From positions 31,073 through 95,072 of the forward strand of contig JBHHYI010000001.1 in NCBI GenBank assembly GCA_046757525.1: a stretch of 64,000 nt of DNA, read 5' to 3'. This document shows positions 1 through 57,831 of the stretch, one piece after another (position 1 is the first letter of the stretch; every line of letters starts with the position of its first letter). The DNA comes from a bacterium (GTDB taxonomy: Bacteria; Zhuqueibacterota; Zhuqueibacteria; Oceanimicrobiales; Oceanimicrobiaceae). Made by a program: the position numbers and the translations under genes. The notes under the pieces are model-generated. The model was not told the DNA's origin. It saw only the letters and a program-made list of their open reading frames with translations, and made no database searches.

Positions 1-1637
1 TCAGCGTGAGGGCGCCGAGAACGGTTACTCTCACGTGCAAGGGTTGGGGCCAGGAAGCGGCCATGCGGATGCTGATGAACAATTTGGATCCCGAAGTCGC
101 TGAAGCTCCGGAGAAGTTGATTATCTATGGGGGGACTGGCAAAGCGGCGAGAAATTGGGATTGTTACCATGCCATCGTGAGGTGCCTGCAAAACCTGGAG
201 AACGACGAGACGTTGCTCGTGCAGTCGGGTAAACCTGTGGGGATTTTTAGGACCCACCCTCAGGCCCCAAGGGTGTTGATCGCCAATTCATTGTTGGTAC
301 CGGCCTGGGCAAATGCGCAATACTTCCGCAACCTGGAAGACAAAGGGCTGATCATGTACGGCCAAATGACCGCGGGTAGCTGGATTTACATCGGCACACA
401 AGGAATCTTGCAAGGCACTTATGAAACTTTTGCTGCTGCGGCTAAAAAGCACTTTGGCGGTGACTTAAAGGGCAAGCTCGTCGTCTCCGGTGGTTTAGGC
501 GGTATGGGAGGAGCCCAGCCCCTGGCTGCCACCATGAACGGCGGTGCCTTCCTGGGAATAGAAGTGGACCGTAACCGAATTGCCAGGCGCCTTAAAACCG
601 GTTATTGCGACCAAATGACCGAAGATTTGGATGAAGCTTTGAGAATCGTTTTGGAGGCTAAGGACAGCGCACAGGCCATTTCGGTGGGTCTGGTGGGGAA
701 TTGTGCGGAAGTCTTGCCCCAGTTGGTGCAAAGGCAAGTTGTGCCGGATTTGCTGACCGATCAAACCTCAGCTCATGACGAGCTCAACGGCTATGTGCCG
801 GCCGGGCTGCCGCTTGAAAAAGCGCTGCAGTTGAGGACCCAGGATCCCGAGGAATACATTCGCAGAAGTTACGAGTCGATGGCACGCCATGTCAAAGCGA
901 TGCTGGAGCTCAACAAAATGGGCGCTGTGACTTTCGATTACGGTAACAATTTGAGGGGGCAAGCCCTCAAAGCAGGTGTGCAAGATGCCTTTGATTTTCC
1001 CGGTTTTGTGCCTGCCTACATTCGGCCGCTGTTCTGCGAAGGCAAAGGGCCATTTCGCTGGGTGGCACTTTCTGGCGATCCGGAAGACATTTACAAAACC
1101 GATGAGGTGGTTTTGAAGTTGTTTCCGGAAAATGAATCCCTTGTTCGCTGGATTGGTCTGGCCCGGAAACGGATTCAGTTTCAAGGGCTGCCTGCGCGAA
1201 TTTGTTGGTTGGGCTATGGGGAGAGGGCCAGGTTTGGCCTGGCCATCAATGACATGGTTGGCAAAGGTGAAATCAAAGCGCCCATCGTAATCGGTAGAGA
1301 TCACCTGGACACCGGCTCTGTGGCTTCCCCGAATCGAGAAACCGAAGGCATGCTGGACGGCTCCGACGCCATTGCTGACTGGCCCATACTCAATGGCCTG
1401 CTCAATGCCGTATCGGGTGCCACCTGGGTGTCGGTACACCATGGTGGCGGCGTTGGAATCGGGAACTCCATTCATGCCGGGCAGGTCGTCGTTGCCGACG
1501 GGACGCAAGAAGCCGCAGAGCGATTAGAGCGCGTGCTGACCAATGATCCAGGCATCGGCATAGCCAGGCATGCGGACGCGGGTTATCAGGGGGCAATCGA
1601 CACCGCGAAGAAGCACGAAATAAAGATTCCCATGTAG
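1..1637 (+). CDS. hutU: urocanate hydratase (urocanase), 5' end outside window
   Basis: Translation matches the HutU family from about residue 12 onward ([25 protein letters not shown] motifs). The frame is open to the window edge. Confidence 0.9.
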
Positions 1638-1751: not shown

Positions 1752-3011
1752 TTGAAGGCCGATTTATTAATCCAAAATGCTGAGGAGATCGCAACCGGGC
1801 AGGCGATTGCTGACTTTGCTCCGGCTAAGTGGTCGGTGTTTAAGGGAACCAGTCTCGCTGCCTTTGAGGGCAAAATCGTAGCCCTGGGGCCGAATCGCCA
1901 GGTTCAAGAAACGGTTGAAATGGCTGACAACGGGGTCACTATCGACGCTACCGGCAAAACCGTGACCCCCGGGTTCGTGGACTGCCACACACACCCAATT
2001 TTCAAAGATGCGCGTGAACAGGAGTTTGAAATGCGGGTGGTGGGAAAGAGTTACGAGGAAATTGCAGAAGCCGGTGGTGGGATTCGTGCCAGTGTTAGAA
2101 GTCTACGTCGAGCTTCCAAAGAGCAATTGGTGCAAGCAGCCCTGCCGCGCCTGGACCGCTTTCTCGCACATGGCACCACCACCATCGAAGCAAAATCGGG
2201 CTACGGGTTGACGCTTGAGGATGAAGTCAAATCGTTGGAAGTGATTGCCGAGCTGAATCGGTTGCACCCCCTCGATATCGTTCCCACCTTTTTGGGCGCA
2301 CACGAGATTCCTGATGAATATCGAGGCCAAACGGGAAAGTATCTCGAGGTGGTCATCAATGAAATGCTTCCCAGGGTTGTGGAAAACAACTTAGCTGAAT
2401 TCTGCGACATATTCTGCGAGGCCAATGTTTTCTCCACCCAGGAGGTGCGCAAACTATTTGCCGCGGCCAGGAATGCCGGTTTGAAATTAAAGATTCATGC
2501 CGACCAATTGACTGCCAACGGTGGGGCTTCGTTAGCCGCAGAATTTGGTGCCGTGTCAGCCGACCACCTGGAATACACCACAGCCGGCGATTGGGCCAAC
2601 CTGCTGCACAACCAGGTCGTTCCTGTGCTCCTGCCAGGCGCTGTTTTTTTTATCGGCAAAGACAAGTACGCCAGGGCTCGTGAGATGGTGAAGATGGGCC
2701 TACCAGTCGCTGTCGCCACCGATTTCAATCCTGGGACCTGCATGTCCGAGTCCATGCCACTCATGCTCACCTTGAGCTGTCTGAAACTGAAGCTCACACC
2801 GGCCGAAACCCTTGTGGCCGCTACCTATCACGCCGCATTAGCCATTGATCGGGGGAACTTATTGGGCACTCTTGAAGTAGGAAAAAAGGCTGATTTAGTA
2901 ATCTGGGATATTCCAAACTTTAAGCACATCCCCTATCATTTCGGTGTTAACCTGGTCAGGACCGTAATTAAGAATGGGAATATAGTTTATGAAATCCAAG
3001 ACTCCCGGTGA
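1752..3011 (+). CDS. hutI: imidazolonepropionase
   Basis: 419 aa with an amidohydrolase HxH motif (FVDCHTHPIF). Sits directly downstream of hutU. Confidence 0.9.
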   Translation: MKADLLIQNAEEIATGQAIADFAPAKWSVFKGTSLAAFEGKIVALGPNRQVQETVEMADNGVTIDATGKTVTPGFVDCHTHPIFKDAREQEFEMRVVGKSYEEIAEAGGGIRASVRSLRRASKEQLVQAALPRLDRFLAHGTTTIEAKSGYGLTLEDEVKSLEVIAELNRLHPLDIVPTFLGAHEIPDEYRGQTGKYLEVVINEMLPRVVENNLAEFCDIFCEANVFSTQEVRKLFAAARNAGLKLKIHADQLTANGGASLAAEFGAVSADHLEYTTAGDWANLLHNQVVPVLLPGAVFFIGKDKYARAREMVKMGLPVAVATDFNPGTCMSESMPLMLTLSCLKLKLTPAETLVAATYHAALAIDRGNLLGTLEVGKKADLVIWDIPNFKHIPYHFGVNLVRTVIKNGNIVYEIQDSR

Positions 3012-4195
3012 ACATGAATAAGTTGAATGGCAAGAGAATTAACCCAATCGTTTACGTTGTATTTGCACTCATGCCCATTCTTTCGAACGCGTGCAGTGGC
3101 GACAGTCCCATCGAAGGCTTCGACCTCACCGATGTCACCGACAGAGGGGAGATTCGCAACACCGTTCTTGACACGCTGCAGTTAGAGATGAGTTTTGACA
3201 ATGAGCTCGCACCCACCGGCCATGCCGTGCTTTTGTCATTGGGCGCTTTTGACAACGTGACGACCAAAATCCTGTTGAGATTTGCCACCTTGCCGGATTC
3301 GCTGGTCATCAGCTCAGCGAAGGTGATTCTGCATCCACACGCCGTTATTGGGCGCAGCAAAGGTTCCTTTACGGCAACAGCCCGTCAGGTTACTACGGAT
3401 TGGGACGAAAGCACGGTGACTTCTGAGAGTTTTGACGAGTCGCAGGCTACCACCGTCGTGGGCATGGCGGAGATATTCTCAACCATTGGCAATGCGACCA
3501 GCAAGGATTCGAGTGTGGTCATACCTATCGACCCGGCGTTGGTGAATGCCTGGATAGATTCTTCGGTGGCAAATCAAGGCATCTTGATCGACTTCTCCCG
3601 GGAACTTTTCATCGAAGAGTTTTTCTCAAAGGACAATTCGACCCAACGACCGCAATTGCAACTGCAGTATATGGTGGAAGATACGTTGCAGACGAACAGT
3701 TTTGTTGCCACGGCTGATGCCTTCCTGTTTAAAAGGACAAGTCCATTACCAAGCGGCCCCATTTATGTGGCTAACGGACTAAACCGGCGAAGCATTCTCA
3801 AATTTAAACTCTCTGAGATTCCCCGTGAGGCTACGGTTAGTAAAGCAATGCTGGATTTAAATATACAGCTCGGAAACACATTGCTCACCGGTGATGGCCT
3901 CAAGATTCAAGTTGTACCCCTACTTTCAGAATTTGTCTCGCCCGATTCCTTCAAAACGGATGCAAGTTTTGTTCTTGAGAGGGATGTGAGTGCTTCGGAT
4001 GGTTCCATTCAGATGGACATTCGAAGTCTGCTTCAAACCTGGGTTTCCCAGACCAGAGAGAATTTTGGTTTTGTCATTAGATCGCGCAATCCAGATCGCG
4101 ATGTCTCGCGCATTGCTTTTTTTTCCACGGAGATCGACACGAGTTTAGCCCCCAAAGTGGCAGTAGACTTCACGATCCCCCCCCAAGGTAAATGA
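3008..4195 (+). CDS. lipoprotein with two internally repeated beta-sandwich-like domains (DNRLRE-like?)
   Basis: GTG start overlaps the hutI stop. Lipobox-like signal (ILSNAC). Two halves share motifs (LLRFATLPDSLVISSAKVIL / ILKFKLSEIPREATVSKAMLDL; FFSKDNS / FFSTEIDTS). Confidence 0.45.
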   Translation: MNMNKLNGKRINPIVYVVFALMPILSNACSGDSPIEGFDLTDVTDRGEIRNTVLDTLQLEMSFDNELAPTGHAVLLSLGAFDNVTTKILLRFATLPDSLVISSAKVILHPHAVIGRSKGSFTATARQVTTDWDESTVTSESFDESQATTVVGMAEIFSTIGNATSKDSSVVIPIDPALVNAWIDSSVANQGILIDFSRELFIEEFFSKDNSTQRPQLQLQYMVEDTLQTNSFVATADAFLFKRTSPLPSGPIYVANGLNRRSILKFKLSEIPREATVSKAMLDLNIQLGNTLLTGDGLKIQVVPLLSEFVSPDSFKTDASFVLERDVSASDGSIQMDIRSLLQTWVSQTRENFGFVIRSRNPDRDVSRIAFFSTEIDTSLAPKVAVDFTIPPQGK

Positions 4196-5534: not shown

Positions 5535-6830
5535 GTGGCTTTCAAAGTTGACCTCAAGACGGTATTGAATGGTTTGATTCGATACGGGGTGCTTTTATTG
5601 ACGATAATGGTTGCTTTAAGTCTAATCCAGGACGGTGCAATTGCTCAGAAAAAGAAAAAGAAGAAGAAGGGCAAAAAGCATAGCGAAGAGTATGAGCAGG
5701 CTTATCGGGATTCTCTGAAAAAGGAATACACTAAGAAACTAAACCTTTACTGGAGTTTCGGGTACGAAAACTACAAAAACAAGCAATATGCCGATGCATC
5801 AAGGCACTTTTGGAGAGTGGCCAGAATGGATACCACAAACAAATTTCCAAAGGTTTATCAGTACCTTGGACAAAGCTATTTTCAGCTCCAAAAGCCAGAC
5901 ACAGCGCAAATCGTATATGAAATGGGCATCAAGAAATATCCCAAAGAAGCCCATTTGCATCGCATGCTCGGTTACATCTTGAGTCAGCGAGAGCAAACGG
6001 ACGCGGCCATTGAGCAGTATGAGGCTGTCGTCAAACTCGAGCCCAAAGCTGTGGATGATTGGCGACAACTTGCAAATTTGTATGTTAGGACCGACAGGAT
6101 GGAAGATGCCATCAGTGCTTATGAGAAAATCGTTGAGCTGGTCCCCGAGGACGTCCAGGCCTCCAATACGCTGGCCGAATTGTTGAAATCCACGGGAGAC
6201 ATCGAACGCGTAATCGCAGCGAAAGAGGAAGCTGTGGCCAAGGATTCAACCAACACGCAGCTCTTGTTTGAGCTTGGCAAAATCTATTTCGATCAGTCTG
6301 AATATGAGAAGGCCATCGAAAAATTCAAAGCTTTGTTGAAAATAACCCCCGATGACGAGAATGCGTTAGAATATGTTGGCAATGCCTATCAAAGCATGGA
6401 ACGGTATCGATCGGCCATTGCTGAATTCAACAAGGTTCTGAAACTTGAGGCCGGCAACAAGAAAGTGTTGGCAGAAATCAGCCGTTGTTACCGGGGTTTG
6501 AACAATTTCCCCCGGGCTCGAGCTTACGCCAGAAAGGCTCTTGCGGTTGATAACCAGTATGGACTGGGTTGGATTGTTTTGGGGGAAGCTTACGAGGCCA
6601 GCGCAGAAAAGTGTGTGAAAGCCAAACGAGGTAAGATTGACTTCAACGACAAATTGGTCTACGAAAAGGCTTATTTCCAATACCGAAAAGCTTTATCTGA
6701 CCTTGAGTACAAGGGCGACGCCGAGAGAAAAATCAATTATTTGCGAGGTGTCTTACCGACAAAAGAAGACAAGTTCATGCACAAGAATCAGAAGCAACCT
6801 AAAGGTGATTGTTACAAGTGGATGCGGTAG
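5535..6830 (+). CDS. TPR-repeat protein with an N-terminal TM segment and a poly-lysine tract
   Basis: TM helix, a KKKKKKKGKK run, then multiple 34-aa TPR-like repeats (AxxYxxAL patterns). Confidence 0.7.
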   Translation: MAFKVDLKTVLNGLIRYGVLLLTIMVALSLIQDGAIAQKKKKKKKGKKHSEEYEQAYRDSLKKEYTKKLNLYWSFGYENYKNKQYADASRHFWRVARMDTTNKFPKVYQYLGQSYFQLQKPDTAQIVYEMGIKKYPKEAHLHRMLGYILSQREQTDAAIEQYEAVVKLEPKAVDDWRQLANLYVRTDRMEDAISAYEKIVELVPEDVQASNTLAELLKSTGDIERVIAAKEEAVAKDSTNTQLLFELGKIYFDQSEYEKAIEKFKALLKITPDDENALEYVGNAYQSMERYRSAIAEFNKVLKLEAGNKKVLAEISRCYRGLNNFPRARAYARKALAVDNQYGLGWIVLGEAYEASAEKCVKAKRGKIDFNDKLVYEKAYFQYRKALSDLEYKGDAERKINYLRGVLPTKEDKFMHKNQKQPKGDCYKWMR

Positions 6831-26855: not shown

Positions 26856-27141
26856 CGACAGCGAGGCGTTTCCTGAAAGCACTGTGCGAGTCATCCCGAG
26901 TAGGTCGCTGCTGTTCAAGTGACCGTATCGAGGGGTGACGGACGTCGATACGAAATTCCCCTTTTTGAAAGGGGGACGGTTTTTGAAGCGTCCAGCGAAA
27001 AAACCAGGGGGATTTTAGGAGGCGTCCTGAAAACCCAAGCTAAGGTGCTGTCGGCCAGACATCCCTCTGATTTTCGCTCTGAACGAGCGAAAATCTGTCT
27101 CCCTTCAAAGGGAGAATGGCCTCGCAAACGAGACGTTTGCG
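26856..27141 (+). repeat. structured intergenic repeat element, copy A (5' module, hairpin-rich middle, conserved 3' hairpin)
   Basis: Positions 26883-26953 are about 90% identical to 53802-53872. The 3' hairpin cgcaaacg-aga-cgtttgcg is shared with copy B. Confidence 0.6.
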
Positions 27142-27158
27142 CGACGGGCAACGGCTTC

Positions 27159-38525: not shown

Positions 38526-40328
38526 TTGAACCCCAAGAGCACTTTGCATCCGAGAGAAATCAAAAACGTGTCCATTAACCACGAGGAGCTTTCGATTGAA
38601 AAATTGTTGTCCGTTTCAAGATACTTTGCCAGAGTGGCGCCCTTCGAGGGGCCGAAACGACAAAAAGTGGATGCTGTGCGGAAATATGTGGAAGAGAACT
38701 GGCTCAGTGACTCAGCCCAACCACGCTACGGATTCAACACTGGCATCGGTTCTTTGAAAGGCGTCAAGATATCGCAGGACAACATCGAGAAATTTCAGCA
38801 GCATTACGTCAAGTCCCACAGCGTGGGCGTCGGAGAGCCTCTGGCCGTCGAAATCGTACGAGGGGCCATGCTCATTCAGGCCAACGCCCTGTCCATGGGT
38901 TTTTCCGGCGTCAGAGCTTTGGTCGTCGACAAACTCATCGAGATGCTGAACAAGAAGGTTCATCCGGTGGTGCCGGAGCAAGGCTCTTTGGGAGCCAGCG
39001 GCGACCTGGCACCTCTCACACACATAGCGTCCGTGCTGGTGGGGGAGGACGACGCTGAAATCTGGATCGGCTCCAGGCGCGCGAAAATCAGTGAGCTCAC
39101 AGAGGCTTCCGGTGCCATTTCGTTCGAGCAAGAAGGCCGCACCATTTCCTTTGAACCCATTCGGTTGCAGGGCAAAGAGGCGGTGTCCCTTACCAATTCC
39201 ACGGCAGTCATGCTTGCCGTTGCCGCCCATTTGGTCTTTGATGCCGAGGTGGTGTTGAAAAATGCGGACATCTCTGGTGCCTTGAGCCTCGAGGCCATGA
39301 TGTGCGAAGCCAGCGCCTTTTCCGAGGATTTGCACCGACTGAGAAATCAGGTTGGCCAGATTAACACGGCAAAAAACATCAGCGCTCTGGTTCAGAACAG
39401 CAAGCGCATGACTTCCGAGGCCCGTCTTCAGTACTTTCAGACAACGACCGGGAGGCAGTTGAACGAGAAACTGAAAGACTCTCCCCTGAAGGAATTTGTT
39501 TCAGAAATTAGCCGGTATAAGAAGGAGCATGAGTTTGAGAAGGATCGGATTCAGGATGCCTATTCGCTGCGGTGCATCCCTCAGGTGCATGGTGCTTGCA
39601 AGGACGCTTTCAATTACGTTAAGAACATCGTAAATCTGGAGTTAAGCGCCGTGACGGATAATCCTGTCATTTTCCCAGAAAGGAGGGAGGATGGGTTTGT
39701 GGCCAGAAGCGGCGGCAATTTTCACGGCGAACCGTTAGCCCTGGCCATGGATTTCCTCAGCATTGCGCTATCCGAAATTGGCAGCATTGCTGAAAGGCGC
39801 CTGTTTCGGATGCTGAGTCCCGGCATGAGCTTTGGCCTGCCGAGAAATCTTTCCGGCGGTGAGGTTGGCGTCAATTCGGGCTACATGATTGTTCAGTACA
39901 CAGCCGCGCAACTCGTGGCGGAAAACAAAATCCTGGCTCACCCCGCCAGCGTCGACAGCATTCCGACCTCAGACAACCAGGAAGACCACGTCAGCATGGG
40001 GCTCACCGCGGCCAGAAAATGTCTAAGGATCGCAAAAAATGTTCAGTACCTGATTGCCATGGAGTACCTTTGTGCGGTGCAGGGGTTGCACCTGAGTGCC
40101 CTGGAGGCTTCCGTCAATTTTGAGAAATTTCCTCTGGGCGCTGGAACGACCCTGGCATTTGATTTTCTCAGGAATTGGAAGATAAAATCCGGAAACAGCG
40201 AAAAATACCCGTTCCAGCTCATGCGGGACGATGAATATGTCAAGACAAAAATCGAAATCATGCGAGCGTTGTGTGCCGAAGGCACCATCGTGAATGAAGT
40301 TGAAAAAAGGGTTAAACTTTTAGTGTAA
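38526..40328 (+). CDS. hutH: MIO-dependent aromatic/histidine ammonia-lyase (probable histidase)
   Basis: GSLGASGDLAPLTH MIO-forming Ala-Ser-Gly motif. 600 aa, longer than typical HAL. Confidence 0.75.
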   Translation: MNPKSTLHPREIKNVSINHEELSIEKLLSVSRYFARVAPFEGPKRQKVDAVRKYVEENWLSDSAQPRYGFNTGIGSLKGVKISQDNIEKFQQHYVKSHSVGVGEPLAVEIVRGAMLIQANALSMGFSGVRALVVDKLIEMLNKKVHPVVPEQGSLGASGDLAPLTHIASVLVGEDDAEIWIGSRRAKISELTEASGAISFEQEGRTISFEPIRLQGKEAVSLTNSTAVMLAVAAHLVFDAEVVLKNADISGALSLEAMMCEASAFSEDLHRLRNQVGQINTAKNISALVQNSKRMTSEARLQYFQTTTGRQLNEKLKDSPLKEFVSEISRYKKEHEFEKDRIQDAYSLRCIPQVHGACKDAFNYVKNIVNLELSAVTDNPVIFPERREDGFVARSGGNFHGEPLALAMDFLSIALSEIGSIAERRLFRMLSPGMSFGLPRNLSGGEVGVNSGYMIVQYTAAQLVAENKILAHPASVDSIPTSDNQEDHVSMGLTAARKCLRIAKNVQYLIAMEYLCAVQGLHLSALEASVNFEKFPLGAGTTLAFDFLRNWKIKSGNSEKYPFQLMRDDEYVKTKIEIMRALCAEGTIVNEVEKRVKLLV

Positions 40329-47016: not shown

Positions 47017-48349
47017 GCCAAATTATTCCGTTCGCCACATTTGCGTGAACATACTGGACCGGCTCAACCACAACGGCCACTATGCCGACGAGCTTATCGC
47101 AGAAGCGTTCAAGAGACATTCTTTGCCGCAAGTCGACAGGTCGCTGGTGGTTGAACTCGTAAACGGCACGGTGCGTTGGCAGGGACAACTCGATTGGATT
47201 CTGGCGCGGGGTTTCCGGGGTGACTTTAACCGGTGCGCGAGCAAACTGAGAGCCATTTTGGAGTTGAGTTTGTACCAGATCAGATTTTTGCAAAGAATCC
47301 CCAAATATGCGGCGGTAGACCAGGGCGTGGAGATCGCGAAAGCCGAAGGGGGGAAGTCCTGGGGCAATTTGGTCAACGCGGTTTTGCGGAATTACCTCAG
47401 GCGCGAGAAAACCCTTGAAATGCCTTCTTTTGAAGCAGACGCCACAACAGCATTGGCGGTTCGCCACTCCCATCCGCAATGGATGGTGCAGCGATGGTTA
47501 GATCGTTACGGTTTGGAAGAAACCGAAGAGCTTTGTCGCTTTAACAACCAAAGACCGTGCGTCTGCGTGCGCGTGAATCTGGCCAAAACCTCGCCTGAGC
47601 ACCTACTGCAATATTTTCAAGAAAGGGAGATCGAGGCTCGCCCGTCGATTTATTTTGCCGATTTTATCAAGATTACTCGTCCGGGAGATTTAAACAACTG
47701 CTCAGCGTTTACCAACGGCCAGTTTACCATTCAAGATGAAAGCACGGCCATCGGCAGTCTGTTGTTAGCACCCCAAAAAGGCGAGACCGTTTTAGATTTG
47801 TGCGCGGCGCCTGGAGGCAAGGCGGGCCACTTAGCCCAGTTGCTCGGTGAATCCGGCCGGGTCTTAGCCGTGGATCAGAACTTCAATCGCTTGAGCTTGT
47901 TGCAGGACAATATTGTTAGGTTACAAACAAGACTCATCCGGCCAATCGTGGCCGATGGGCGCCACTTTCAGTGTTCCCCGGTCAACAAAATCCTGTTAGA
48001 CGCTCCTTGTTCTGGCCTGGGCGTTTTGGCCAAACGGGTCGATTTGCGCTGGAGACGAAAACCCAACGATATCGCTAAGGTGAGCCGTTTGCAAAGGTCT
48101 TTGTTGCAAAGCGCCAGTCGACTGGTCAAAAAAGGGGGAGTTTTGGTTTACAACACTTGCACCCTCGAGCCTGAGGAAAATGAAACTGTGGTTGAAGATT
48201 TCCTGGATCGCAATGGGAATTTTAGGTTAGAACCGCTGGCTTTAAGTTGTTTGGAGCCATTCGCGAATTCCCAGGGCTATTTCAGATCCTTACCCCAAAA
48301 GCACAAAATGGACGGAGCTTTTGCGGCAAGATTGTTAAGGATTAACTAG
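47009..48349 (+). CDS. rsmB: 16S rRNA (cytosine967-C5)-methyltransferase RsmB
   Basis: N-terminal NusB-like domain, SAM motif (DLCAAPGGK) and catalytic motifs (DAPCSG; LVYNTCTL). Confidence 0.9.
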   Translation: MNKPNYSVRHICVNILDRLNHNGHYADELIAEAFKRHSLPQVDRSLVVELVNGTVRWQGQLDWILARGFRGDFNRCASKLRAILELSLYQIRFLQRIPKYAAVDQGVEIAKAEGGKSWGNLVNAVLRNYLRREKTLEMPSFEADATTALAVRHSHPQWMVQRWLDRYGLEETEELCRFNNQRPCVCVRVNLAKTSPEHLLQYFQEREIEARPSIYFADFIKITRPGDLNNCSAFTNGQFTIQDESTAIGSLLLAPQKGETVLDLCAAPGGKAGHLAQLLGESGRVLAVDQNFNRLSLLQDNIVRLQTRLIRPIVADGRHFQCSPVNKILLDAPCSGLGVLAKRVDLRWRRKPNDIAKVSRLQRSLLQSASRLVKKGGVLVYNTCTLEPEENETVVEDFLDRNGNFRLEPLALSCLEPFANSQGYFRSLPQKHKMDGAFAARLLRIN

Positions 48350-48503
48350 TGATTGACCGAGACTCCCAAAATGTCATTTCGACGCAGTCCAGCAACTGCC
48401 GGACGGAGGAGAAATCTGGTTACATTGGTGCTTAGCCAGATTTCTCATCAGGCATTCGCCTGATTCGAAATGACAGTCGTTAGATGAGTTTTCGGTCAAT
48501 CAC
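48349..48503. repeat. about 155-bp nested inverted-repeat (MITE/REP-like) element between rsmB and the PASTA gene
   Basis: Outer inverted repeat gtgattgaccga / tcggtcaatcac. Inner inverted repeat tgtcatttcga / tcgaaatgaca. Internal stems gagaaatctgg / ccagatttctc and tcaggc / gcctga. Confidence 0.6.
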
Positions 48504-48535
48504 TAACTTAAAGTATGAATTAAGAGCCAATAATC

Positions 48536-49318
48536 ATGGCCACTCTCAAAGAACGAGCATTGCACCTATTGACTCCCAAGCGAGTAGCGATCCTGGCCTT
48601 GCTCACGGGCGTCTTATTAGGGGTCACTATTCTATTTGACCAGGTCCTCATGCCCTGGTATACGCGGCACGATCAGGCCCTGGAAGTGCCAAACCTGGTG
48701 GGTAAGCGATTCGAAAGCGCCAAAGAGCTTTTGGACGCAGCCGGTTTGGAAATCGTCAAGAAGGGCGAGAAGTATGACTCGGCGTGGCCGTTCGGCTATG
48801 TGGTGGACCAGAACCCACACGCATTGAGGAAGGTCAAGAATGGCCGACGGGTTTATGTGACTCTGAGCCTTGGCGACCGTGAGCTGCAAGTGCCGGACCT
48901 CATGGGACTGTCTGAAACCAACGCTGAGGAACGATTAAAGAGCCTGGGGCTTCGGATCGGGGAACGAGAATACGAATACGTTGCCAACGAACCGTCCGAT
49001 ATCGTCATCGCCCAGTCGTTGCCACCGAACCGAATGGTGAAAACTGGCACCGCCGTTGACATAAAGGTCAGTCTGGGCAAGGCGGCTGGCAGCGCTCGAG
49101 TTCCGTCAATTCTGGGCAAAACCCTGGAGACCGCCAAAAGGGAAATAAGAAAATCGGGGCTGGTTCTGGGTCATGTACAGTTCCGCCTGACCAACGAATT
49201 CTTGCCGAACACAGTCATCTGGCAGTCCCTTACGACGGGCACAAAGGTAACCCGCGGGGACACTTTAGACCTCATCGTGACCACGGTGAGCCAATCAAAG
49301 CGGAGCTTGAAACAATGA
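48536..49318 (+). CDS. membrane-anchored PASTA-domain protein (three PASTA repeats, no kinase or PBP domain)
   Basis: N-terminal TM followed by three repeats of about 65 aa beginning VPNLVG / VPDLMG / VPSILG. Confidence 0.8.
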   Translation: MATLKERALHLLTPKRVAILALLTGVLLGVTILFDQVLMPWYTRHDQALEVPNLVGKRFESAKELLDAAGLEIVKKGEKYDSAWPFGYVVDQNPHALRKVKNGRRVYVTLSLGDRELQVPDLMGLSETNAEERLKSLGLRIGEREYEYVANEPSDIVIAQSLPPNRMVKTGTAVDIKVSLGKAAGSARVPSILGKTLETAKREIRKSGLVLGHVQFRLTNEFLPNTVIWQSLTTGTKVTRGDTLDLIVTTVSQSKRSLKQ

Positions 49319-49974
49319 TCAAGATCGCGCCTTCTATTCTGGCAGCAGACTTCTCGGTGCTAAGAGACCAAATCCAAATCGCCGAAGAAGCGGGAGCCGA
49401 TTGGTTGCATCTGGACGTCATGGACGGCCACTTTGTACCGAACTTAACCTTTGGGCCGTTGCTGGTAGAGGCTGTTAATAGAATCACCGACTTGCCTTTG
49501 GATGTTCATCTAATGATCGAGAATCCCGACGCCTACATCCACCAGTTCCGCGAGGCAGGTGCGGACATCATTTCCGTGCATGCAGAAGCCTGTGTGCATC
49601 TGAACCGGACGCTCAACTTGATCAGAGACGCCGGGGCGCAAGGGGGCGTGGCTCTCAACCCGGCCACACCCATCGGTTTCTTAGATGACGTTCTGGACGA
49701 CACCGACCTGGTGTTAGTCATGACCGTCAATCCGGGATTCGGCGGTCAGTCGTTTATTGCCCATTCCGCCGACAAAATCCAACGTATTGCCCGCAAACTC
49801 GAGCAGGCTGAACTTTCGATTTTCATAGAGGTCGACGGTGGCATCGATAAGATTACCGCGCCACAGGTGGTAGCGGCTGGCGCTAATGTGTTGGTGTCCG
49901 GCTCCGCCATCTTTGCCTCTGAGGATATCTCCCGGGCCCTGAAGGCGATAAGGGCGTCGGTAGCGGGTCTGTAG
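49315..49974 (+). CDS. rpe: ribulose-phosphate 3-epimerase
   Basis: IAPSILAADF, HLDVMDGHFVPN and VMTVNPGFGGQ motifs. Confidence 0.9.
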   Translation: MIKIAPSILAADFSVLRDQIQIAEEAGADWLHLDVMDGHFVPNLTFGPLLVEAVNRITDLPLDVHLMIENPDAYIHQFREAGADIISVHAEACVHLNRTLNLIRDAGAQGGVALNPATPIGFLDDVLDDTDLVLVMTVNPGFGGQSFIAHSADKIQRIARKLEQAELSIFIEVDGGIDKITAPQVVAAGANVLVSGSAIFASEDISRALKAIRASVAGL

Positions 49975-50024
49975 CTCGCATGATTCACAAACTTTCAGTT
50001 TTTTGCTGCGCGTTCTACTGATGG

Positions 50025-50064
50025 TGTCATTTCGAGTCAGGCGGCTGCCTGACTCGAAATGACA
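50025..50064. repeat. perfect 18-bp-stem palindrome sharing the TGTCATTTCGA termini of the 48349-48503 element
   Basis: tgtcatttcgagtcaggc-ggct-gcctgactcgaaatgaca. No U-run follows it. Confidence 0.7.
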
Positions 50065-50321
50065 GTTTGGGGGCTTAAGTTGATGCCGATGGGCGTATGC
50101 CGGATTAATCGGGAATCTTGTGCCTAATTCTCGAATGCATTCCTGCTTACACCATGCAGCAATGACATTCATTGGGCCAATAGATGAAATTCACAATAGT
50201 TTAGTTATTGGATGGCGGATAAACGGGGATGTAATCAAGATTATCTGGGGGTATTACCTTGACGCAGTTACCTACCGTGACGTATTGCCAATCGTATTCT
50301 CAGTCCAGGATAGTTAAGGTG

Positions 50322-51497
50322 TCAATACTTCTTAGCAACGGTTTTATACGCGTCTCTAAATGGCATCCCTCCTTTAACTAATTTATAGACCGCTTCCGTC
50401 GCATAAACTTCTTCGGTCATCGCTTTTGCACAATTGTCCTCGTTGACTTTGAGATTCTGGAAAATGAGGCTCATGATTTCAATACTGGCCCTTGTAATTT
50501 CAAAGGCCTGCATGATTGGTTTTTTGGTAAGTTGTAAGTCTCGATGATAGCCTGATATCAAGTTACCGATGATATTCTTGATTTGGAATTCCTGTGACAC
50601 GACGATGTGGCATCTTGCTCGCAGCAGCTCCAACACATCCGGGTTCTTTTTTTGTGGCATAATCGAACTGCCTGTGCAAAAATCCTCAGGCAATTCGAAA
50701 TACCCGAACTCCGGCATGCTGAATACGATTAAGTCGGAGGCTATTTTATTTAAATCGAACATGATTTGACTTAACGCGTGCAGTATGGTGGATTCAAATT
50801 TCCCGCGGCTGTTTTGACAGTAAATCGGGTTTTGTTGCAGCTTTTTAAAACCCAATAACTCAGTCGTCATATCTCTATTTATTTTCAGAGGGATGCCATA
50901 GCCGGCGCCAGTTCCTAACGGTGATTGATCCACTAATTCAAGTGAAAGTTCAACTACTTTCAGGTTGTCATTCATTGAATCGATAAACGAAGTTCCCCAC
51001 ATGCTAACCGCGGAGGGCATGGCTTTTCTTGTATGGGAATATCCTGGAAATATTATTTCTCCGTACTTTTTGCTAAAATTAGCGATTGCTTTGATTAGTC
51101 GCTCCACCGATTTCTTGCATTCATTCAGCTCATGCTTATAAAACAATCTCAATGCCGTCAACACCTGGTCGTTTCTCGACCGTGCGGTATGTATCTTCTT
51201 ACCCAAATCGCCTAACTTTTTTACCAGATGGTTCTCGATGGCGGTGTGACAATCCTCTTGTTCTTTCCGAATCTTGAATTTGCCCTTCTTATCTAAGTGG
51301 ATAATGTGGTTTAGTTCCCGTTCGAGTTTTTGCACCTCTTGTTCGTTCAAAATGCCAACCGTGCCCAGCATCTTAGCGTGGGCAATCGAAGCTATGCAGT
51401 CGTATTTCACTAATTTCTGGTCCAGAATAAAGTCATCATCCACGGTGAAGTCTTCGATCTGTTTATTTGGGTGGGTGTGCGTTTGCCAAAGTTTCAT
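50322..51497 (-). CDS. argH: argininosuccinate lyase (short, about 391 aa, C-terminal part apparently missing)
   Basis: Fumarate-lyase signature [12 protein letters not shown]. About 41% GC versus about 53% in flanking DNA. Start placed at MKLWQ, overlapping the argG 3' end. Confidence 0.8.
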
Positions 51498-52743
51498 ATT
51501 TTCGCCAATCATACGGTTTTCTCTTGCGTAACACAAGATGGTGAGCTTTTAATCTAATGGCATTAATGTTGATAAAGCCGCGCGAGTCTGTTGCGTCAAA
51601 TCCACCTTCGACTTCCATACTGGAGAGGTCCTGTTCGTAAAGAGATGTGGGGGATTCTCTGCCGATTATATTCACACTGCCTTTGTACAGAGAAAGAAGG
51701 ACTCTGCCGTCGATGGCTTCTTGACTTTTGTTGAAAGCGCTCATGATAAAATCCATTTCCGGTGAAAACCAAAAGCCATTATAAATCAATTCAGAAAATT
51801 TTGGTATCAGCATGTCCCGCAAGTGCATAACTTCTTTGTCCATGGCAATGCCTTCCAGGTCTCTGTGGGCTTCCCAAAGAATAGTAGCCCCGGGAGATTC
51901 ATAAATACCTCTGGATTTTATCCCAATAAACCGATTTTCAACCATATCCACTCTGCCGATTCCATTTTCGCTGCCCAAATCATTTAAATACATGAATAGT
52001 TCCAGGGGCTTATCCTTGACAATCTCTTTATTTTTGTTGATGACCTTTACCGGGAAGCCATTCTTAAAATGAATCTCGACGATCGTCTCCTCGTCGGGCG
52101 TTTGCTTGATCGATTTGGTCATGGAAAATATATTTTCAGGCGGCCGATAAAATGTGTTTTCCAAAACGCCGGCTTCGTGGCTTATGTGCATCAAGTTTTC
52201 ATCTTCGCTGTACGGTTTTTCTTTGGAGGCTTTCACCGAAATGTTCCATTTTTTGGCATAATTCAATAAGTCACTTCTCCCCTTGAATTCTTCTAAGAAT
52301 TCCGGATCCTTCCACGGGGAGACTATTTTGATGTCAGGATTTAGAGCGTAGTAAGTAAGTTCAAATCTCACCTGATCATTTCCTTTGCCTGTGGCCCCAT
52401 GGGAAACAAATTCTGCGTTCTCGATTTCAGCAATTTCAATTTGTTTTTTCGAAAGTAGGGGTCTCGCTAAGGAGGTGCCGAGCAAGTACCTGCCCTCATA
52501 AAGTGCGTTGCCTCGCAGCGCAGGGAAGATGTAATCTGTGACAAACACTTCTCTCAGATCTTCTGTAAAAACTTTAGAAGCTCCGGTTGCAAGCGCTTTT
52601 TGTTCAAGCGCTTTGAAATCCTCTTGTTGTCCAACGTTGCCTACGAAACAAATTACCTCAAATCCTTTATTAAGCAACCATTTTAAAATTACAGACGTGT
52701 CCAGTCCGCCACTATAAGCCAGGATCAGTTTTTTCGTTGCCAT
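51463..52743 (-). CDS. argG: argininosuccinate synthase
   Basis: [12 protein letters not shown]-loop, 426 aa, low GC like argH. Confidence 0.9.
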
Positions 52744-53779: not shown

Positions 53780-53995
53780 CTGAAGTGGTTCTTAGAAACA
53801 ATGTGCAAGTCATCCCGAGTAGGTCACCGCTGTTCAGGTGACCGTATCGAGGGGTGACGGGCTTCGATACGTCCCGACCAAAAAGCGGTAGGGACCAAAC
53901 GGTGACCTTCTTTGAGAAGGTTACCGTTTGACAACCCCGCCCTCGCAATCGAGACGATTGCGTTACGTGCAACAGAGCGTTTCCTGAGAGTGTAC
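53780..53995 (+). repeat. structured intergenic repeat element, copy B
   Basis: Positions 53802-53872 are about 90% identical to 26883-26953. Contains a 15-bp hairpin (53905-53937) and the shared 3' hairpin cgcaatcg-aga-cgattgcg (53944-53962). Confidence 0.6.
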
Positions 53996-54756: not shown

Positions 54757-55224
54757 TTGATTGTGAGATTCTCTAAGAAGGACATCGACAAAATTGGCAA
54801 GGTGTTAGGCGTTCAAGCCAAGCTTTGGGGAAACAATTATCGCTTTATGCTCGAAAACAGAGAGGCCGGCAGAAAGCTTTCCTTGGAAATCTATCCTAAC
54901 ATTCCAATCGGCAAACAGACCGGAAACCTGGTCAGCGTTTACACCCACAACTCCCATTTGCAGCTTCACTTTTGCACCGGATACGTCGTCAGTGAGATGT
55001 TGGGTGAGGTTACTTTTGTAGGCGAGTTTCAAGGACGCCTCTCGGGTCTGATTATCGAAAAAGAGGCGGGCTGTTCTCTCTACGCCAATGTTGATTCAAA
55101 TCTTCTTTCCGGCGATCTCACGAAACTTGGCCCAGAAGTCATGCTTTCCGGCATTGCTTTATCTCTTACCGAAGGCATTCTGCCGGGCGGAGAGGAGGCA
55201 CATTCCGAAGAAAGAGAATCTTAA
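54757..55224 (+). CDS. hypothetical protein
   Basis: 155-aa open frame between csp and the xerD-like gene. No recognisable motif. Confidence 0.35.
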   Translation: MIVRFSKKDIDKIGKVLGVQAKLWGNNYRFMLENREAGRKLSLEIYPNIPIGKQTGNLVSVYTHNSHLQLHFCTGYVVSEMLGEVTFVGEFQGRLSGLIIEKEAGCSLYANVDSNLLSGDLTKLGPEVMLSGIALSLTEGILPGGEEAHSEERES

Positions 55225-55293
55225 CACCCGGCATTGATACTGGTGACGAGATCGCATGGCGTCGATGGCAATCTCTTTTTGAAGAATAATGGG

Positions 55294-56220
55294 ATGTTGA
55301 ATTACTTAGACGAATTCCTGAACTTTCTCCGGGTTGAAAAGAATGCCGCTGCCAACACCGTCCAGTCCTACCAGAATGATCTGAATCGCTATTTGAGTTT
55401 TCTGGCGGATAGGGGCTTTGCCAATTTGGAAGATGTCAAAGCCGCAGATATTCTCTCCTTGATCAATAGCTTGCACCAGTTGGGTTTTGCTTCCGCCAGC
55501 AACGCCAGAAATTTATCCGCCATCCGAATGTTCCACCGTTTTTTGCTTGGAGAAGGCCACGTAAAAGTCGATCCTACCCTGAACATTAGCTTCCCCAAGC
55601 TGTCGAAAAAGCTGCCCGCAGTCCTGACTCAACCGGAAATCGAATCCATTTTGAGCCAACCGGTTCTTTCCACGAAAAAGGGTCTGCGCGACAAGGCGAT
55701 GTTGGAGTTCTTGTACGCTACCGGAACACGGGTTTCGGAGCTGATCGCCACTCGTTGTCAGGATTTGTTTTTTGCCGAGGGATTCATTCGAGTGGTGGGA
55801 AAAGGGTCGAAGGAACGCATCGTCCCCATTGGCGAGCAAGCTATATTCTACACGACCTCCTATTTAACGCAAGTGCGGTGTCACGTAGCCCAGAGAGGTC
55901 TCAGCAAGGATGTGGTGTTCTTGAATTTCCGCGGCAAGCCGCTTTCGAGGATGGGTGTCTGGAAGGTCCTGCGTGCTTATGTCGTCAAGGCGGGCATTAC
56001 GAAAAAAGTTTCGCCGCATACGTTCAGGCACTCGTTTGCTACCCATCTCATAGAAGGGGGAGCTGACCTGCGTGCTGTGCAGGAAATGCTGGGCCATGCG
56101 GATATTTCCACAACGCAAATCTACACGCACCTGGATCGTGAGTACCTGAAAGAGGTGCATCGGCTGTTTCATCCCCTGGAAAAGTATGGCAACAAAGCGA
56201 AGAGGGTGTTACAAACATGA
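55294..56220 (+). CDS. tyrosine site-specific recombinase (XerD-like)
   Basis: R...HxxR...Y catalytic set (HTFRHSFATHL, LGHADISTTQIYTHL). Confidence 0.8.
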   Translation: MLNYLDEFLNFLRVEKNAAANTVQSYQNDLNRYLSFLADRGFANLEDVKAADILSLINSLHQLGFASASNARNLSAIRMFHRFLLGEGHVKVDPTLNISFPKLSKKLPAVLTQPEIESILSQPVLSTKKGLRDKAMLEFLYATGTRVSELIATRCQDLFFAEGFIRVVGKGSKERIVPIGEQAIFYTTSYLTQVRCHVAQRGLSKDVVFLNFRGKPLSRMGVWKVLRAYVVKAGITKKVSPHTFRHSFATHLIEGGADLRAVQEMLGHADISTTQIYTHLDREYLKEVHRLFHPLEKYGNKAKRVLQT

Positions 56221-56241: not shown

Positions 56242-57831
56242 ATGTCGAAAGTCTCTGAGCGCAAAAAAATATTTACTACCGATTCCGGCATTAAAGTCAA
56301 AGCTGTCTACGACGAGGCAGATGTCGCAGACTCCAAGGGTCTGCTGGGCTTTCCTGGAGCGTATCCCTTCACTCGCGGGATTTATTCCAATATGTATCGC
56401 GGCCGATTTTGGAGCATGCGGCAATATGGCGGTTTTGGTACGGCAAAGGAAACCAACCAAAGATTCAAGTATTTGCTGGATAACGGACAAACGGGCCTGT
56501 CGGTCGCCTTTGATCTGCCTACCCAAATGGGTTTCGATTCGGACTCCCCGCTGGCAGAAGGCGAAGTGGGGAAGGCAGGCGTGGCGATCGATAGCCTCAG
56601 GGACATGGAGATTCTGTTCCAGGATATACCGCTGGAGAAAATAACCACGTCCATGACCATCAACGCTACTGCTGCCATTCTTCTGGCCCTTTATGTGGCC
56701 ATCGCCAGGAAGCAGGGTGCAGATTTGAAACGAATCAGCGGCACGATTCAAAATGACATTCTCAAAGAATACATCGCTCGCTCGACTTACATTTATCCGC
56801 CGGAGCCCTCGATGCGAATCGTGACCGACATTTTTGAGTATTGCAAAGACCACCTGCCGCGCTGGAACACGATCTCCATAAGCGGCTACCACATCCGCGA
56901 GGCTGGTGCCAATGCCATCCAGGAGTTGGCGTTTACCTTTGCCAATGCCATCGCCTACATTGAGGCGGCCCTGAAGCGCGGTTTGAATGTGGATGAATTT
57001 GGCGGTCGGTTGTCCTATTTCTTTGCCTGTCATAACAATTTTTTTGAAGAAATTGCCAAATTCCGGGCGGCGCGTCGTATTTATGCAACCATTATGAAGG
57101 AAAGATTCAACGCTGCCAGGCCGAAGACCCTGATGCTGCGGTTCCATACGCAAACAGGTGGGTCCACCTTGACCGCGCAACAACCGGATAACAACATCAT
57201 TCGGGTGGCGTTGCAGGCCCTCGCCGCTGTTTTGGGCGGCACGCAGTCGTTGCACACCAACTCCAAAGACGAAGCGCTGGCGCTCCCGACCGAGGAGGCC
57301 GTACGCATCGCCTTGCGAACCCAGCAAATCATCGCTCATGAATCGGGCGTGGCCGACACCGTCGATCCGCTGGGGGGGAGCTATTTTCTGGAATCCCTGA
57401 CCCAAGAAATCGAGTCCAAAGTGTGGGGATATCTTGACCGAATCCAGAAGTTGGGAGGGGCGGTAAAAGCCATTGAAGAGCACTATTTTCAGGAGGAGAT
57501 CAGCAGAAGCGCCTACAAATATCAGAAAGAGATCGAGGCGAATGATAGAATCATCGTGGGCGTGAATGAATTTGTTCATGAAGAGAAAGAACCTCAATCA
57601 ATTTTGCGCGTCGATCCCTCGGTCCGCAGCGAACAAATAGCTGCCCTGAAAAAATTAAGAGCCGATAGAGATACTGGCAAAGTCGAGCGTTTGCTGGCAG
57701 AATTGAGAACGGCTGCGCAAGGCTCTGAAAATCTCATGCCCAAGATTCTGGCCTGTGTCGAAGGTTACGTAACCCTGGGAGAAATCTCTGACACCTTGCG
57801 AGAAGTCTTCGGCAGCTACAGCGAAAGCTGA
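56242..57831 (+). CDS. methylmalonyl-CoA mutase-family catalytic (TIM-barrel) subunit, no B12-binding domain in this ORF
   Basis: 529 aa matching the MCM large-subunit N-terminal domain ([24 protein letters not shown]). Confidence 0.85.

Follow-up and report, generated by a model that had tools for sequence, protein, structure and literature searches.

The element described here is a perfect hairpin at positions 50025-50064 of a 64,000-nt stretch of bacterial DNA (contig JBHHYI010000001.1; the whole stretch is hereafter the window), and its closest described relatives are the CGTC-tagged repetitive extragenic palindromes (REPs). Members of this superfamily, among them dRS3 of Neisseria and RPE-4 and RPE-6 of Rickettsia, carry a CGTC, TGTC or CCTC tag, a stem of 8-9 bp, a loop of 4-5 nt and an unpaired 3-nt tail that is mostly CCA (Di Nocera, De Gregorio & Rocco 2013, BMC Genomics 14:522, PMC3733652). 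The first pairs of the stem are 'almost invariably' A-T and T-A, head-to-head dimers are predominant and members occur in five phyla including Chlorobi and Bacteroidetes (PMC3733652). CGTC-type REPs are not known to have a dedicated transposase, and no RAYT gene is reported to be flanked by them (PMC3733652).

The window holds a short form of the repeat, which is the hairpin itself, and a long form at 48347-48505 that contains two units; further copies are found on 27 contigs of one uncultured Calditrichaceae metagenome-assembled genome (MAG). Like the CGTC/TGTC-tagged REPs, the hairpin has a tag and an AT-initial 8-bp stem (ATTTCGAG/CTCGAAAT) followed by a short tail, and the copies on the 27 contigs and in the two window elements are multi-copy, intergenic, often inverted dimers and show no transposase. 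Unlike in those REPs, the TGTC of the hairpin (50025-50028) pairs with GACA (50061-50064) so that the tag is present on both strands; in the long-form units, whose tail is CTGG, the tag is unpaired within the unit. The 8-bp stem runs unbroken into an inner hairpin, giving 14 bp, or 18 bp with the tag, where 8-9 bp is published, and the terminal loop GGCT has 4 nt but a 16-nt GC hairpin stands in place of the 8-bp stem's own loop (published: 4-5 nt). Instead of CCA, the short form and a second repeat of the window, the D1 module, have GAC(A) as their tail, and the long-form units have CTG(G). The units are embedded in shells bounded by terminal inverted repeats (TIRs), and the phylum, that of a Calditrichaceae relative, lies outside the 2013 survey. 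In Neisseria, pairs of dRS3 flank variable segments and form mosaic intergenic arrays (Neisseria intergenic mosaic elements, NIMEs), which the mosaic found here resembles.

A second comparison is with miniature inverted-repeat transposable elements (MITEs), examples of which are Correia/NEMIS, ERIC and Nezha. The shells are MITE-like in their length of 130-245 nt, their 14-21 bp TIRs and in being non-coding, multi-copy, intergenic and assembly-breaking, and TIRs combined with small size and the lack of an open reading frame (ORF) are found in the Z-type shell at 48347-48505 and in the X, Y and Z shells of the MAG. They differ from MITEs in that no autonomous insertion sequence with matching TIRs was seen in the sampled loci and that target-site duplications are not clear, and from a simple MITE model in that at least three shell types surround the same inner core. 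The GTAG-tagged REPs and REPINs with their RAYTs (Nunvar 2010; Bertels & Rainey 2011, PMC3116915; Messing 2012, PMC3479197) are likewise short intergenic palindromes with a conserved 5′ tetranucleotide that persist over long times in a lineage; as in REPINs, whose inverted doublets are the replicating unit, the sequence is conserved beyond the need for pairing. The family described here differs in its tag (TGTC, not GTAG or GTRG), in having no RAYT gene found nearby and in its longer, nested units. Finally, Caldithrix abyssi carries an 18-nt REP-like palindrome, aAACCGTTgaAACGGTTt (Kublanov et al. 2017, PMC5317091), which belongs to the same phylum-level group and is similarly intergenic, high-copy and often located between convergent genes. 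Its sequence is unrelated, with no match in the window at up to 2 mismatches, and it is described as not part of larger repeats, unlike the units found here. On balance, we consider it probable that the hairpin belongs, as one unit, to a family of small, non-coding palindromic repeats that is specific to this lineage, of the REP/MITE kind and closest to the CGTC/TGTC-tagged REP superfamily.

A perfect 18-bp hairpin lies between the convergent genes rpe and argH

Positions 50025-50064 read tgtcatttcgagtcaggc-ggct-gcctgactcgaaatgaca (TGTCATTTCGAGTCAGGC-GGCT-GCCTGACTCGAAATGACA), with a 5′ arm at 50025-50042, a loop at 50043-50046 and a 3′ arm at 50047-50064. The perfect 18-bp stem with a 4-nt ggct loop that a preliminary description of the window had proposed is confirmed by sequence and fold. 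The hairpin and its flanks are composed of the following features:

50025-50064, no strand assigned: short palindromic repeat unit, based on sequence, fold, motif statistics and family membership
50025-50028: tag TGTC of the hairpin
50029-50036: stem ATTTCGAG of the hairpin
50037-50052: inner hairpin TCAGGC-GGCT-GCCTGA
50053-50060: second stem strand CTCGAAAT
50061-50064: tail GACA
49978-50024, plus strand: left flank, a putative remnant of the outer left part of a Y-type shell, beginning 4 nt past the rpe stop codon
50065-50108, minus strand: right flank, based on homology to MAG contig L043 and recurrence of the W motif

The short form is a single unit in which the 8-bp stem ATTTCGAG/CTCGAAAT is stacked directly on a B hairpin, one of the two inner hairpin types described below, and the palindrome is perfect because the GACA tail complements the TGTC tag. 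On folding, both strands give an unbroken 18-bp hairpin (-35.9 and -32.6 kcal/mol). The corresponding z-scores against dinucleotide shuffles are -6.9 and -9.7, with an equal fold in 0 of 200 shuffles, and inverted repeats with perfect 18-bp arms and loops of 3-8 nt would be expected by chance about 6e-6 times per 64 kb. The hairpin is a real feature and no chance occurrence.

The two flanking genes, rpe (49315-49974, plus strand) and argH (50322-51536, minus strand), are convergent and their stop codons are located 51 nt and 258 nt from the hairpin, respectively. No U-run follows it on either strand, the tails being GTTTGGGGG on the plus strand (RNA GUUUGGGGG) and CCATCAG on the minus strand (RNA CCAUCAG), and a terminator scan of the window contains no entry for it. 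In line with the preliminary description, the hairpin consequently does not qualify as an intrinsic (Rho-independent) terminator. The left flank, GCATGATTCACAAAC...TTTTTTGCTGCG...CTGATGG, is comparable to GCCTGATTAATTCACAAATCT...TTCAGTTGCTTCCGCTGAAT of the MAG, and blastn aligns 49983-50060 to positions 6127-6203 of MAG contig L037 at 75% identity. The right flank, read on the minus strand, leads from ATCCGGCATAC, the 5′ arm of a broken D hairpin, via GCCCATCGGCATCAACTTAAG, the junction motif W, to CCCCCAAAC abutting the hairpin. Both flanks are repeat debris. A 152-aa ORF on the minus strand (49714-50172) runs through the hairpin and its repeat flanks and is almost certainly spurious.

The termini GTCATYYCGAG had been proposed to be shared by the hairpin, the long element and the D1 module. 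This 11-mer occurs 4 times in the window where 0.12 occurrences are expected, a number reached in 0 of 100 shuffles. The sites are 26890, 50026 (plus strand), 50053-50063 (minus strand) and 53809, one in each arm of the short hairpin and one in each D1 copy; the arms of the long element end in GTCATTTCGAC and GTCATTTCGAA (...CGAC, ...CGAA) and hence fall outside the 11-mer. The related motif TGTCATTYCGA is present exactly four times, once per arm in both TTTC elements (short hairpin and long element), and every one-mismatch match to it is located inside a gene. The predicted kinship of hairpin and long element is borne out by the TGTCATTTCGA arms and the TCAGGC/GCCTGA core that the hairpin has in common with 48372-48475, with 79-83% identity over 36-38 nt. 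In agreement with the earlier count of four elements in 64 kb, ORF and Pfam maps place all four in intergenic regions. A third copy suggested by a repeat search (family D2, 56723-56760, 63% identity) is found inside a methylmalonyl-CoA mutase gene and was rejected as a chance match.

The repeat family is conserved in a distantly related Calditrichaceae MAG

We scanned 185,579 species-representative genomes, a collection that does not include the window's genome, for TGTCATTTCGANTCAGGC and identified 55 loci, 27 of which are different contigs of one uncultured Calditrichaceae MAG (CAYVXE01). The remaining 28 loci are singletons in unrelated taxa. All of these except L023 are without a hairpin partner and therefore almost certainly represent chance matches; several apparently lie in coding sequence, and with 17 bases specified, chance alone would give about 70 matches. 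Protein identity between window and MAG is 72% for purL and 64% for hisS, and gene order is shared in part, which points to a fairly distant relative of the MAG as the source of the window. Despite this protein divergence, the 40-nt core CCAGATTTCTCATCAGGC....GCCTGATTCGAAATGACA is 90-95% identical to about 20 MAG copies, and the family occurs in two genomes whose proteins have diverged to an identity of about 65-72%.

The MAG copies are built like the long element of the window. Each unit consists of a tag (T)GTC, a stem ATT(T/C)C, an inner hairpin preceded by GA and followed by G(A/G), a second strand G(A/G)AAT and a tail CTGG, with the inner hairpin being either of type 'B' (TCAGGC-N4-GCCTGA) or of type 'D' (TCCGGCA-NN-TGCCGGA). 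Units occur singly or as inverted dimers. Two inverted units form a core of roughly 105-140 nt in which tags and stems can inter-pair to give a cloverleaf fold. Mostly, the units are found inside MITE-like shells of about 130-245 nt possessing their own TIRs, and at least three shell types can be distinguished: X (GGGGYTGTCYAAAA..., about 195 nt), Y (GCCTGATTAATTCACAAATCT, about 245 nt) and Z ((T)AGTGATTGACCGAAAAC). The shell TIRs in the MAG are 14-21 bp long and their pairs always lie about 130-220 nt apart, five aligned Y-type elements having 21-bp TIRs at a distance of about 220 nt. No TIR pair more than about 220 nt apart was observed in the sampled MAG loci.

Each of the 34 sites examined in the window and in MAG loci is intergenic, 16 of them between tandem, 3 between convergent and 3 between divergent genes, with 12 having only one callable flanking gene. 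Together with the core found on 27 MAG contigs, this bears out the earlier proposal of a dispersed intergenic repeat family. Orientation relative to neighbouring genes is unbiased (9 antisense and 5 sense by our own tally), and the G·T wobble positions of stems A and C are located on opposite strands. Opposite-strand wobbles, unbiased orientation and the equal folding of both strands favour a DNA-level element over a sense-strand RNA. Several MAG contigs end within elements, and Logan contigs of SRR29324611 corresponding to the window (L001, 48476-50054; L060, 50178-53831) also break at repeats. The end of L060 near 50178 coincides with no defined unit; a second ATTCACAA Y-type TIR-like motif is present at about 50186.

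The W motif is present at 15 or more broken MAG hairpins. In every case, this junction motif, YWTSN-GCGTCAACTTAAG, is joined immediately 3′ of '..GCC' in a broken B or D hairpin and has at least six different continuations beyond it; sites were observed in the window (50072-50095, minus strand) and on contigs L005, L010, L013, L022, L032, L033, L036, L043, L047, L055 and L057. Its appearance suggests either a recombination scar or the terminus of an element that targets hairpins.

A search of the 192 kb of MAG loci for multi-copy transposase-like ORFs found none. Multi-copy proteins in these loci are limited to several large proteins encoded next to repeat elements (L005, L007, L031, L037, L046 and L052) that share a domain of about 100 aa with 30-50% identity, which may be a secretion or sorting domain.

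The long form is an inverted dimer in a Z-type shell

The long element of the window consists of a shell and two units:

48347-48505, no strand assigned: long relative, a Z-type shell enclosing an inverted dimer of two units, based on a TIR scan and folding
48372-48419, plus strand: dimer unit 1, TGTC-ATTTC-GA-[GTCCAGC AACT GCCGGAC, 'D' hairpin, 48387-48404]-GGAG-GAAAT-CTGG
48436-48475, minus strand: dimer unit 2, TGTC-ATTTC-GA-[ATCAGGC GAAT GCCTGAT, 'B' hairpin, 48447-48464]-GA-GAAAT-CTGG

The shell is bounded by the 14-bp TIR TAGTGATTGACCGA at 48347-48360 and 48492-48505, and the whole element folds as a four-helix cloverleaf with a z-score of about -6 on both strands. Unit 2 (48436-48475) is the best-conserved part of the family, again with 90-95% identity to about 20 MAG copies. 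The RsmB domain of the upstream gene is intact through residue 442 of 446, which places the insertion precisely at the gene end; the left TIR opens with the rsmB stop codon TAG (48347-48349).

The short form is a propagated subfamily

In some MAG dimers, for example L028(-) and L057, the B hairpin is followed by CTCGAAATCTG in place of GGAGAAATCTG. Simulated loss of 65 nt between the direct repeats CTCGAAAT and TTCGAAAT in L028(-), from TCGAAAT to the TCGAAAT of the far arm, yields TGTCATTTCGAGTCAGGCGCAGGCCTGACTCGAAATGACA. This product is identical to the hairpin at 37 of 40 positions with all 3 differences located in or next to the loop. The same deletion in the window's own long element would yield GATGAGAAATGACA, which is not the observed sequence. 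Hairpin and flank (50025-50108) align to L043 5058-5140 with 84.5% identity over 84 nt, and the neighbouring genes at the two sites are different (non-syntenic). This non-syntenic homologue and the different product expected from the neighbouring copy show that the short form is a propagated subfamily and did not arise by local deletion of that copy.

The idea that the hairpin is a deletion derivative therefore survives in a modified form, with a dimer such as L028(-) and not the neighbouring element as the candidate precursor. Internal deletion is a plausible origin: the short form would have been born when a dimer underwent a deletion between its two TCGAAAT direct repeats of 7 nt, an event that would automatically yield a perfect 18-bp palindrome, and would then have been copied along with its flank. 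Directly upstream of the MAG short-form element, about 120 masked positions (N; L043 4871-4990) separate the copies of a direct repeat, about 55 nt long, in which a promoter-like TTGACA...TATACA is found.

The D1 module represents a second repeat family

The D1 module (GTCATCCCGAG) is present twice in the window:

26863-26952, plus strand: D1 module, copy 1 of the second family, (A)GTC-ATCCC-GAGTAG-[GGTCGCT GCTGTTCA AGTGACC]-CGTATCGA-GGGGT-GAC
53782-53871, plus strand: D1 copy 2 of the second family, with 84% identity to copy 1; it contains one end of Logan contig L060

Copy 2 shows a compensatory change in the inner hairpin (GGTCACC/GGTGACC). Downstream of copy 1, TCGATACG is probably the remnant of an inverted partner copy, and a degenerate inverted partner of copy 2 may extend to about 53906. 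A pseudoknot between CGTATCGA and the downstream TCGATACG was considered and rejected, as an inverted-partner remnant is the better explanation and a complete inverted second copy exists on L070. A metagenome scan for GTCATCCCGAG-N(12-42)-CGAGGGGTGAC returned 14 loci in two classes. Class I is of the D1 type, GTC-ATCCC-GAGTAG-[7-bp hairpin, 8-nt loop]-CGTATCGA-GGGGT-GAC, and includes L063, L064, L069 and L070, which a single metagenome supplied; class II elements read GTC-ATCCC-GAGCG..[GCGAAGC or hairpin]..GAGT-CGA-GGGGT-GAC. In class I, the internal-loop bases are invariant (GAGTAG / CGTATCGA; RNA GAGUAG / CGUAUCGA) while both helices covary. A class I covariance model recovered the inverted second copy in L070, unforced, at 53.6 bits. 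That copy contains compensatory changes in the outer helix (GTCGTCCT/AGGGCGAC) and a wholly different inner helix that is still paired, so D1 also exists as an inverted doublet.

The wobble pairs of D1 function on the plus strand only, the minus strand folding no better than shuffled sequence, and the copies are in sense orientation relative to their neighbours in 6 of 6 cases. Invariant internal-loop bases, covarying stems and uniform sense orientation suggest that D1 may act at the RNA level. The module has no Rfam match. Besides the two window copies at 26863-26952 and 53782-53871 (plus strand), D1 was seen at L063 2744, L064 4765 (minus strand), L069 7349, and L070 494 and 544-606 (minus strand), and copies are often located 20-230 nt upstream of genes for secreted or envelope proteins. 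The hairpin CTCGCAA(A/T)CGAGACG(T/A)TTGCG is found 130-235 nt downstream of both window copies (27128-27148 and 53938-53958), and more perfect hairpins are nearby (CCCCTTTTTGAAAGGGG at 26964-26981; GATTTTCGCTC..GAGCGAAAATC at about 27070-27096). A longer, modular repeat may thus encompass the D1 copies.

The hairpin and the module at 26890/53809 had been suggested to belong to one superfamily. A syntax common to the TTTC family and D1 can indeed be recognized: a GTC tag, an AT-initial stem, GA(G), an inner hairpin, (C)GA, the second strand and a tail, with stem variants that pair correctly (TTTC/GAAA, TTCC/GGAA, CCTT/AAGG, CCCC/GGGG and TCCC/GGGG). Such a layout agrees with the CGTC/TGTC-tagged REP superfamily as published (PMC3733652). 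Four of these variants (TTTC/GAAA, TTCC/GGAA, CCTT/AAGG and CCCC/GGGG) are found with the same tag and tail in the MAG, where 42 units follow the syntax against 12.8 expected when wobble pairs and tail are allowed. A strict test (GTCA followed by N4 with its exact reverse complement) gave enrichment for TTTC only. D1 itself is absent from the 192 kb of MAG loci rich in the TTTC family, and its strand-specific wobbles and exclusive sense orientation also set it apart. A superfamily link is plausible and moderately supported by these comparisons, as the signal appears only when wobble pairs and tail are allowed. Canonical units of the CGTC-tagged REP type, TGTC-ATTCCCGA-GCTCTTTTA-TCGGGAAT-CCAG, are present on the same metagenome contigs as D1 (L069 3728 and L070 2019-2123).

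Gene content of the window

The window is a housekeeping stretch that contains hut genes, glyA, nrdR, tatC, rng, mdh, pyrG, lptC/A/B, rpoN and hslVU as well as argF, purL, hisS, radA, tgt, def, fmt, rsmB, rpe, argH, argG and mcm. No transposase, tRNA or Rfam match was found in its 64 kb. Its start carries hutU and hutI, and a histidine ammonia-lyase gene (38526-40328) separates purL and hisS, which are adjacent in the Calditrichaceae MAG (L010 6145-6157). The 404-aa argH ORF and its partial ASL_C2 match raised the idea of a truncation by repeat insertion. This was rejected as 391-403 aa are normal among 120 homologues and no extension exists in another frame. An XerC/D-like tyrosine recombinase gene (55234-56220) is probably a housekeeping xerC/D, with no link to the repeats found, and is immediately preceded by a 155-aa ORF without Pfam match (54757-55224).

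Discussion

The family is multi-copy, intergenic and conserved in its core, occurs in any gene context and in both orientations, and breaks assemblies; it is probably selfish DNA. It is a variant of the CGTC/TGTC-tagged kind outside the four published families and seems to be undescribed, ordinary in kind and new in detail. Literature searches by nucleotide and peptide strings returned only primers and irrelevant matches, and Rfam gave no match at gathering score in the window, 19 MAG loci and 14 metagenome loci. The family would most likely spread or persist at the DNA level, by transposition or by hairpin-targeted recombination through an enzyme encoded elsewhere, and the conserved tag and stem would be the recognition site of that enzyme. 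As a likely side effect, RNA polymerase would pause at the hairpin, or 3′ exonucleases would be blocked by it, where it forms near the 3′ ends of rpe and argH mRNA.

Several points weigh against assigning the hairpin to a REP/MITE-type family. No mobilizing enzyme was found in the window or the sampled MAG loci, and the nearest argH homologue besides the window's own is 75% identical, too distant for a comparison of empty and filled sites. Target-site duplications are ambiguous, with AACT possibly present on both sides of the window's Z-type copy and the flanks of X-type copies being inverted and not direct. The hairpin also departs from the strict definition of the published CGTC families, which calls for a tail close to CCA, a tag left unpaired at one end and, directly on a stem of 8-9 bp, a loop of 4-5 nt. 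An undecayed perfect 18-bp palindrome and strong conservation across genomes could also reflect a host function. Finally, the data comprise 64 kb from the source genome plus 192 kb from a single relative, whose loci were selected for containing the motif.

A common protein, for example a RAYT-type transposase, had been put forward as the factor recognizing both repeat families. The hairpin would then be a REP or REPIN mobilized by a RAYT (Y1 HUH transposase), which would bind the tagged hairpin as single-stranded DNA and cut next to the tag. The REP-like layout with a conserved 5′ tetranucleotide, palindrome and inverted dimers is consistent with this, and REPs and RAYTs can co-persist for long times in a lineage, fitting the cross-genome conservation. 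The tag is TGTC and not GTAG, however, and none of the approximately 55 window ORFs scanned encodes a Y1_Tnp domain (PF01797). The 192 kb of MAG loci likewise yielded no RAYT by tblastn with IS200 and RAYT queries, which is a weak test, and the published survey reports no RAYT flanked by CGTC-type REPs. On the D1-carrying metagenome contig L069, a truncated and frameshifted RAYT is followed by a TGTC-ATTCCCGC...GCGGGAAT-CCAGG unit. The fragment is detected as Y1_Tnp at E = 4e-4, below the Pfam cut-off, and the unit is part of a TIR-bounded insertion that apparently truncates the RAYT gene, so the proximity is probably fortuitous; two to three homologues of the fragment on short metagenome contigs have no such units alongside. 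Within the window and the loci sampled, recognition by a RAYT is unsupported, and we regard it as unlikely. The L069 region (2667-3146 and 3349-3684) contains a group II intron maturase fragment (GIIM, E = 4e-7) and directly behind it the frameshifted, truncated RAYT-like gene with the HUH motif PDHMHCIW, after which an element of about 150 nt with the TIR TAGTGTCCGGTTAG holds the dRS3-like unit TGTC-ATTCCCGC..GCGGGAAT-CCAGG.

Selection by the host for an RNA element, either a bidirectional terminator or a 3′-end stabilizer of rpe and argH transcripts that lacks a U-tract, is less likely again. The position 51 nt and 258 nt past the two stop codons and the very stable hairpin on both strands would suit such a role, and REPs are reported to stabilize upstream mRNA and to be found mostly downstream of genes (PMC3733652, PMC5317091). 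Against it stand the missing U-run and the negative terminator scan, the occurrence of family members between divergent genes and at long distances from stop codons, and the unbiased orientation. The sequence itself is conserved between genomes beyond pairing, and the flanks are repeat debris. Stabilizing or terminating these transcripts is at most a side effect.

A structured non-coding RNA, with the long form as a four-helix cloverleaf and the short form as its processed or minimal version, appears very improbable. The z-score of the long form and inner-hairpin loops that often start with G and are in some cases GNRA-like (GGAA, GCAA, GAAA) are compatible with it, but both strands fold equally, orientation shows no bias relative to transcription and the wobbles are inconsistent between strands. 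Even at E <= 10, Rfam gives only chance miRNA-hairpin matches. A hammerhead ribozyme, considered because GCCUGA-N-GAGAAAU contains CUGANGA with a variable N7, was rejected in view of the missing GAAA after helix II, the wrong helix topology and the lack of an Rfam match. The weakest candidate, a palindromic operator for a transcription factor or a site for a recombinase such as Xer or an integrase, draws on the perfect palindrome and the XerC/D-like gene of the window and can be largely dismissed, as 18-bp arms far exceed operator half-sites, the site lies between two gene 3′ ends, the copies are associated with no gene class and inspection revealed no similarity to dif or attC cores.

The finding extends the CGTC/TGTC-tagged REP type to an uncultured relative of the Calditrichaceae, in an unusual nested form with a hairpin in the loop and several shell types around one core. 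It is another case without an evident transposase. In practical terms, the repeats account for assembly breaks in the lineage and generate spurious ORFs, such as the one at 49714-50172 (minus strand), and they should not be annotated as terminators or small RNAs. It is conceivable, if doubtful, that the lineage hosts an active hairpin-targeting system for which TGTC units serve both as shell cores and as insertion or recombination sites of an element ending in YWTSN-GCGTCAACTTAAG. If this site-specific event is real, the enzyme by which CGTC/TGTC-type REPs are moved or recombined could come to light in complete genomes of the lineage, which would address the question of their mover left open by the 2013 survey.

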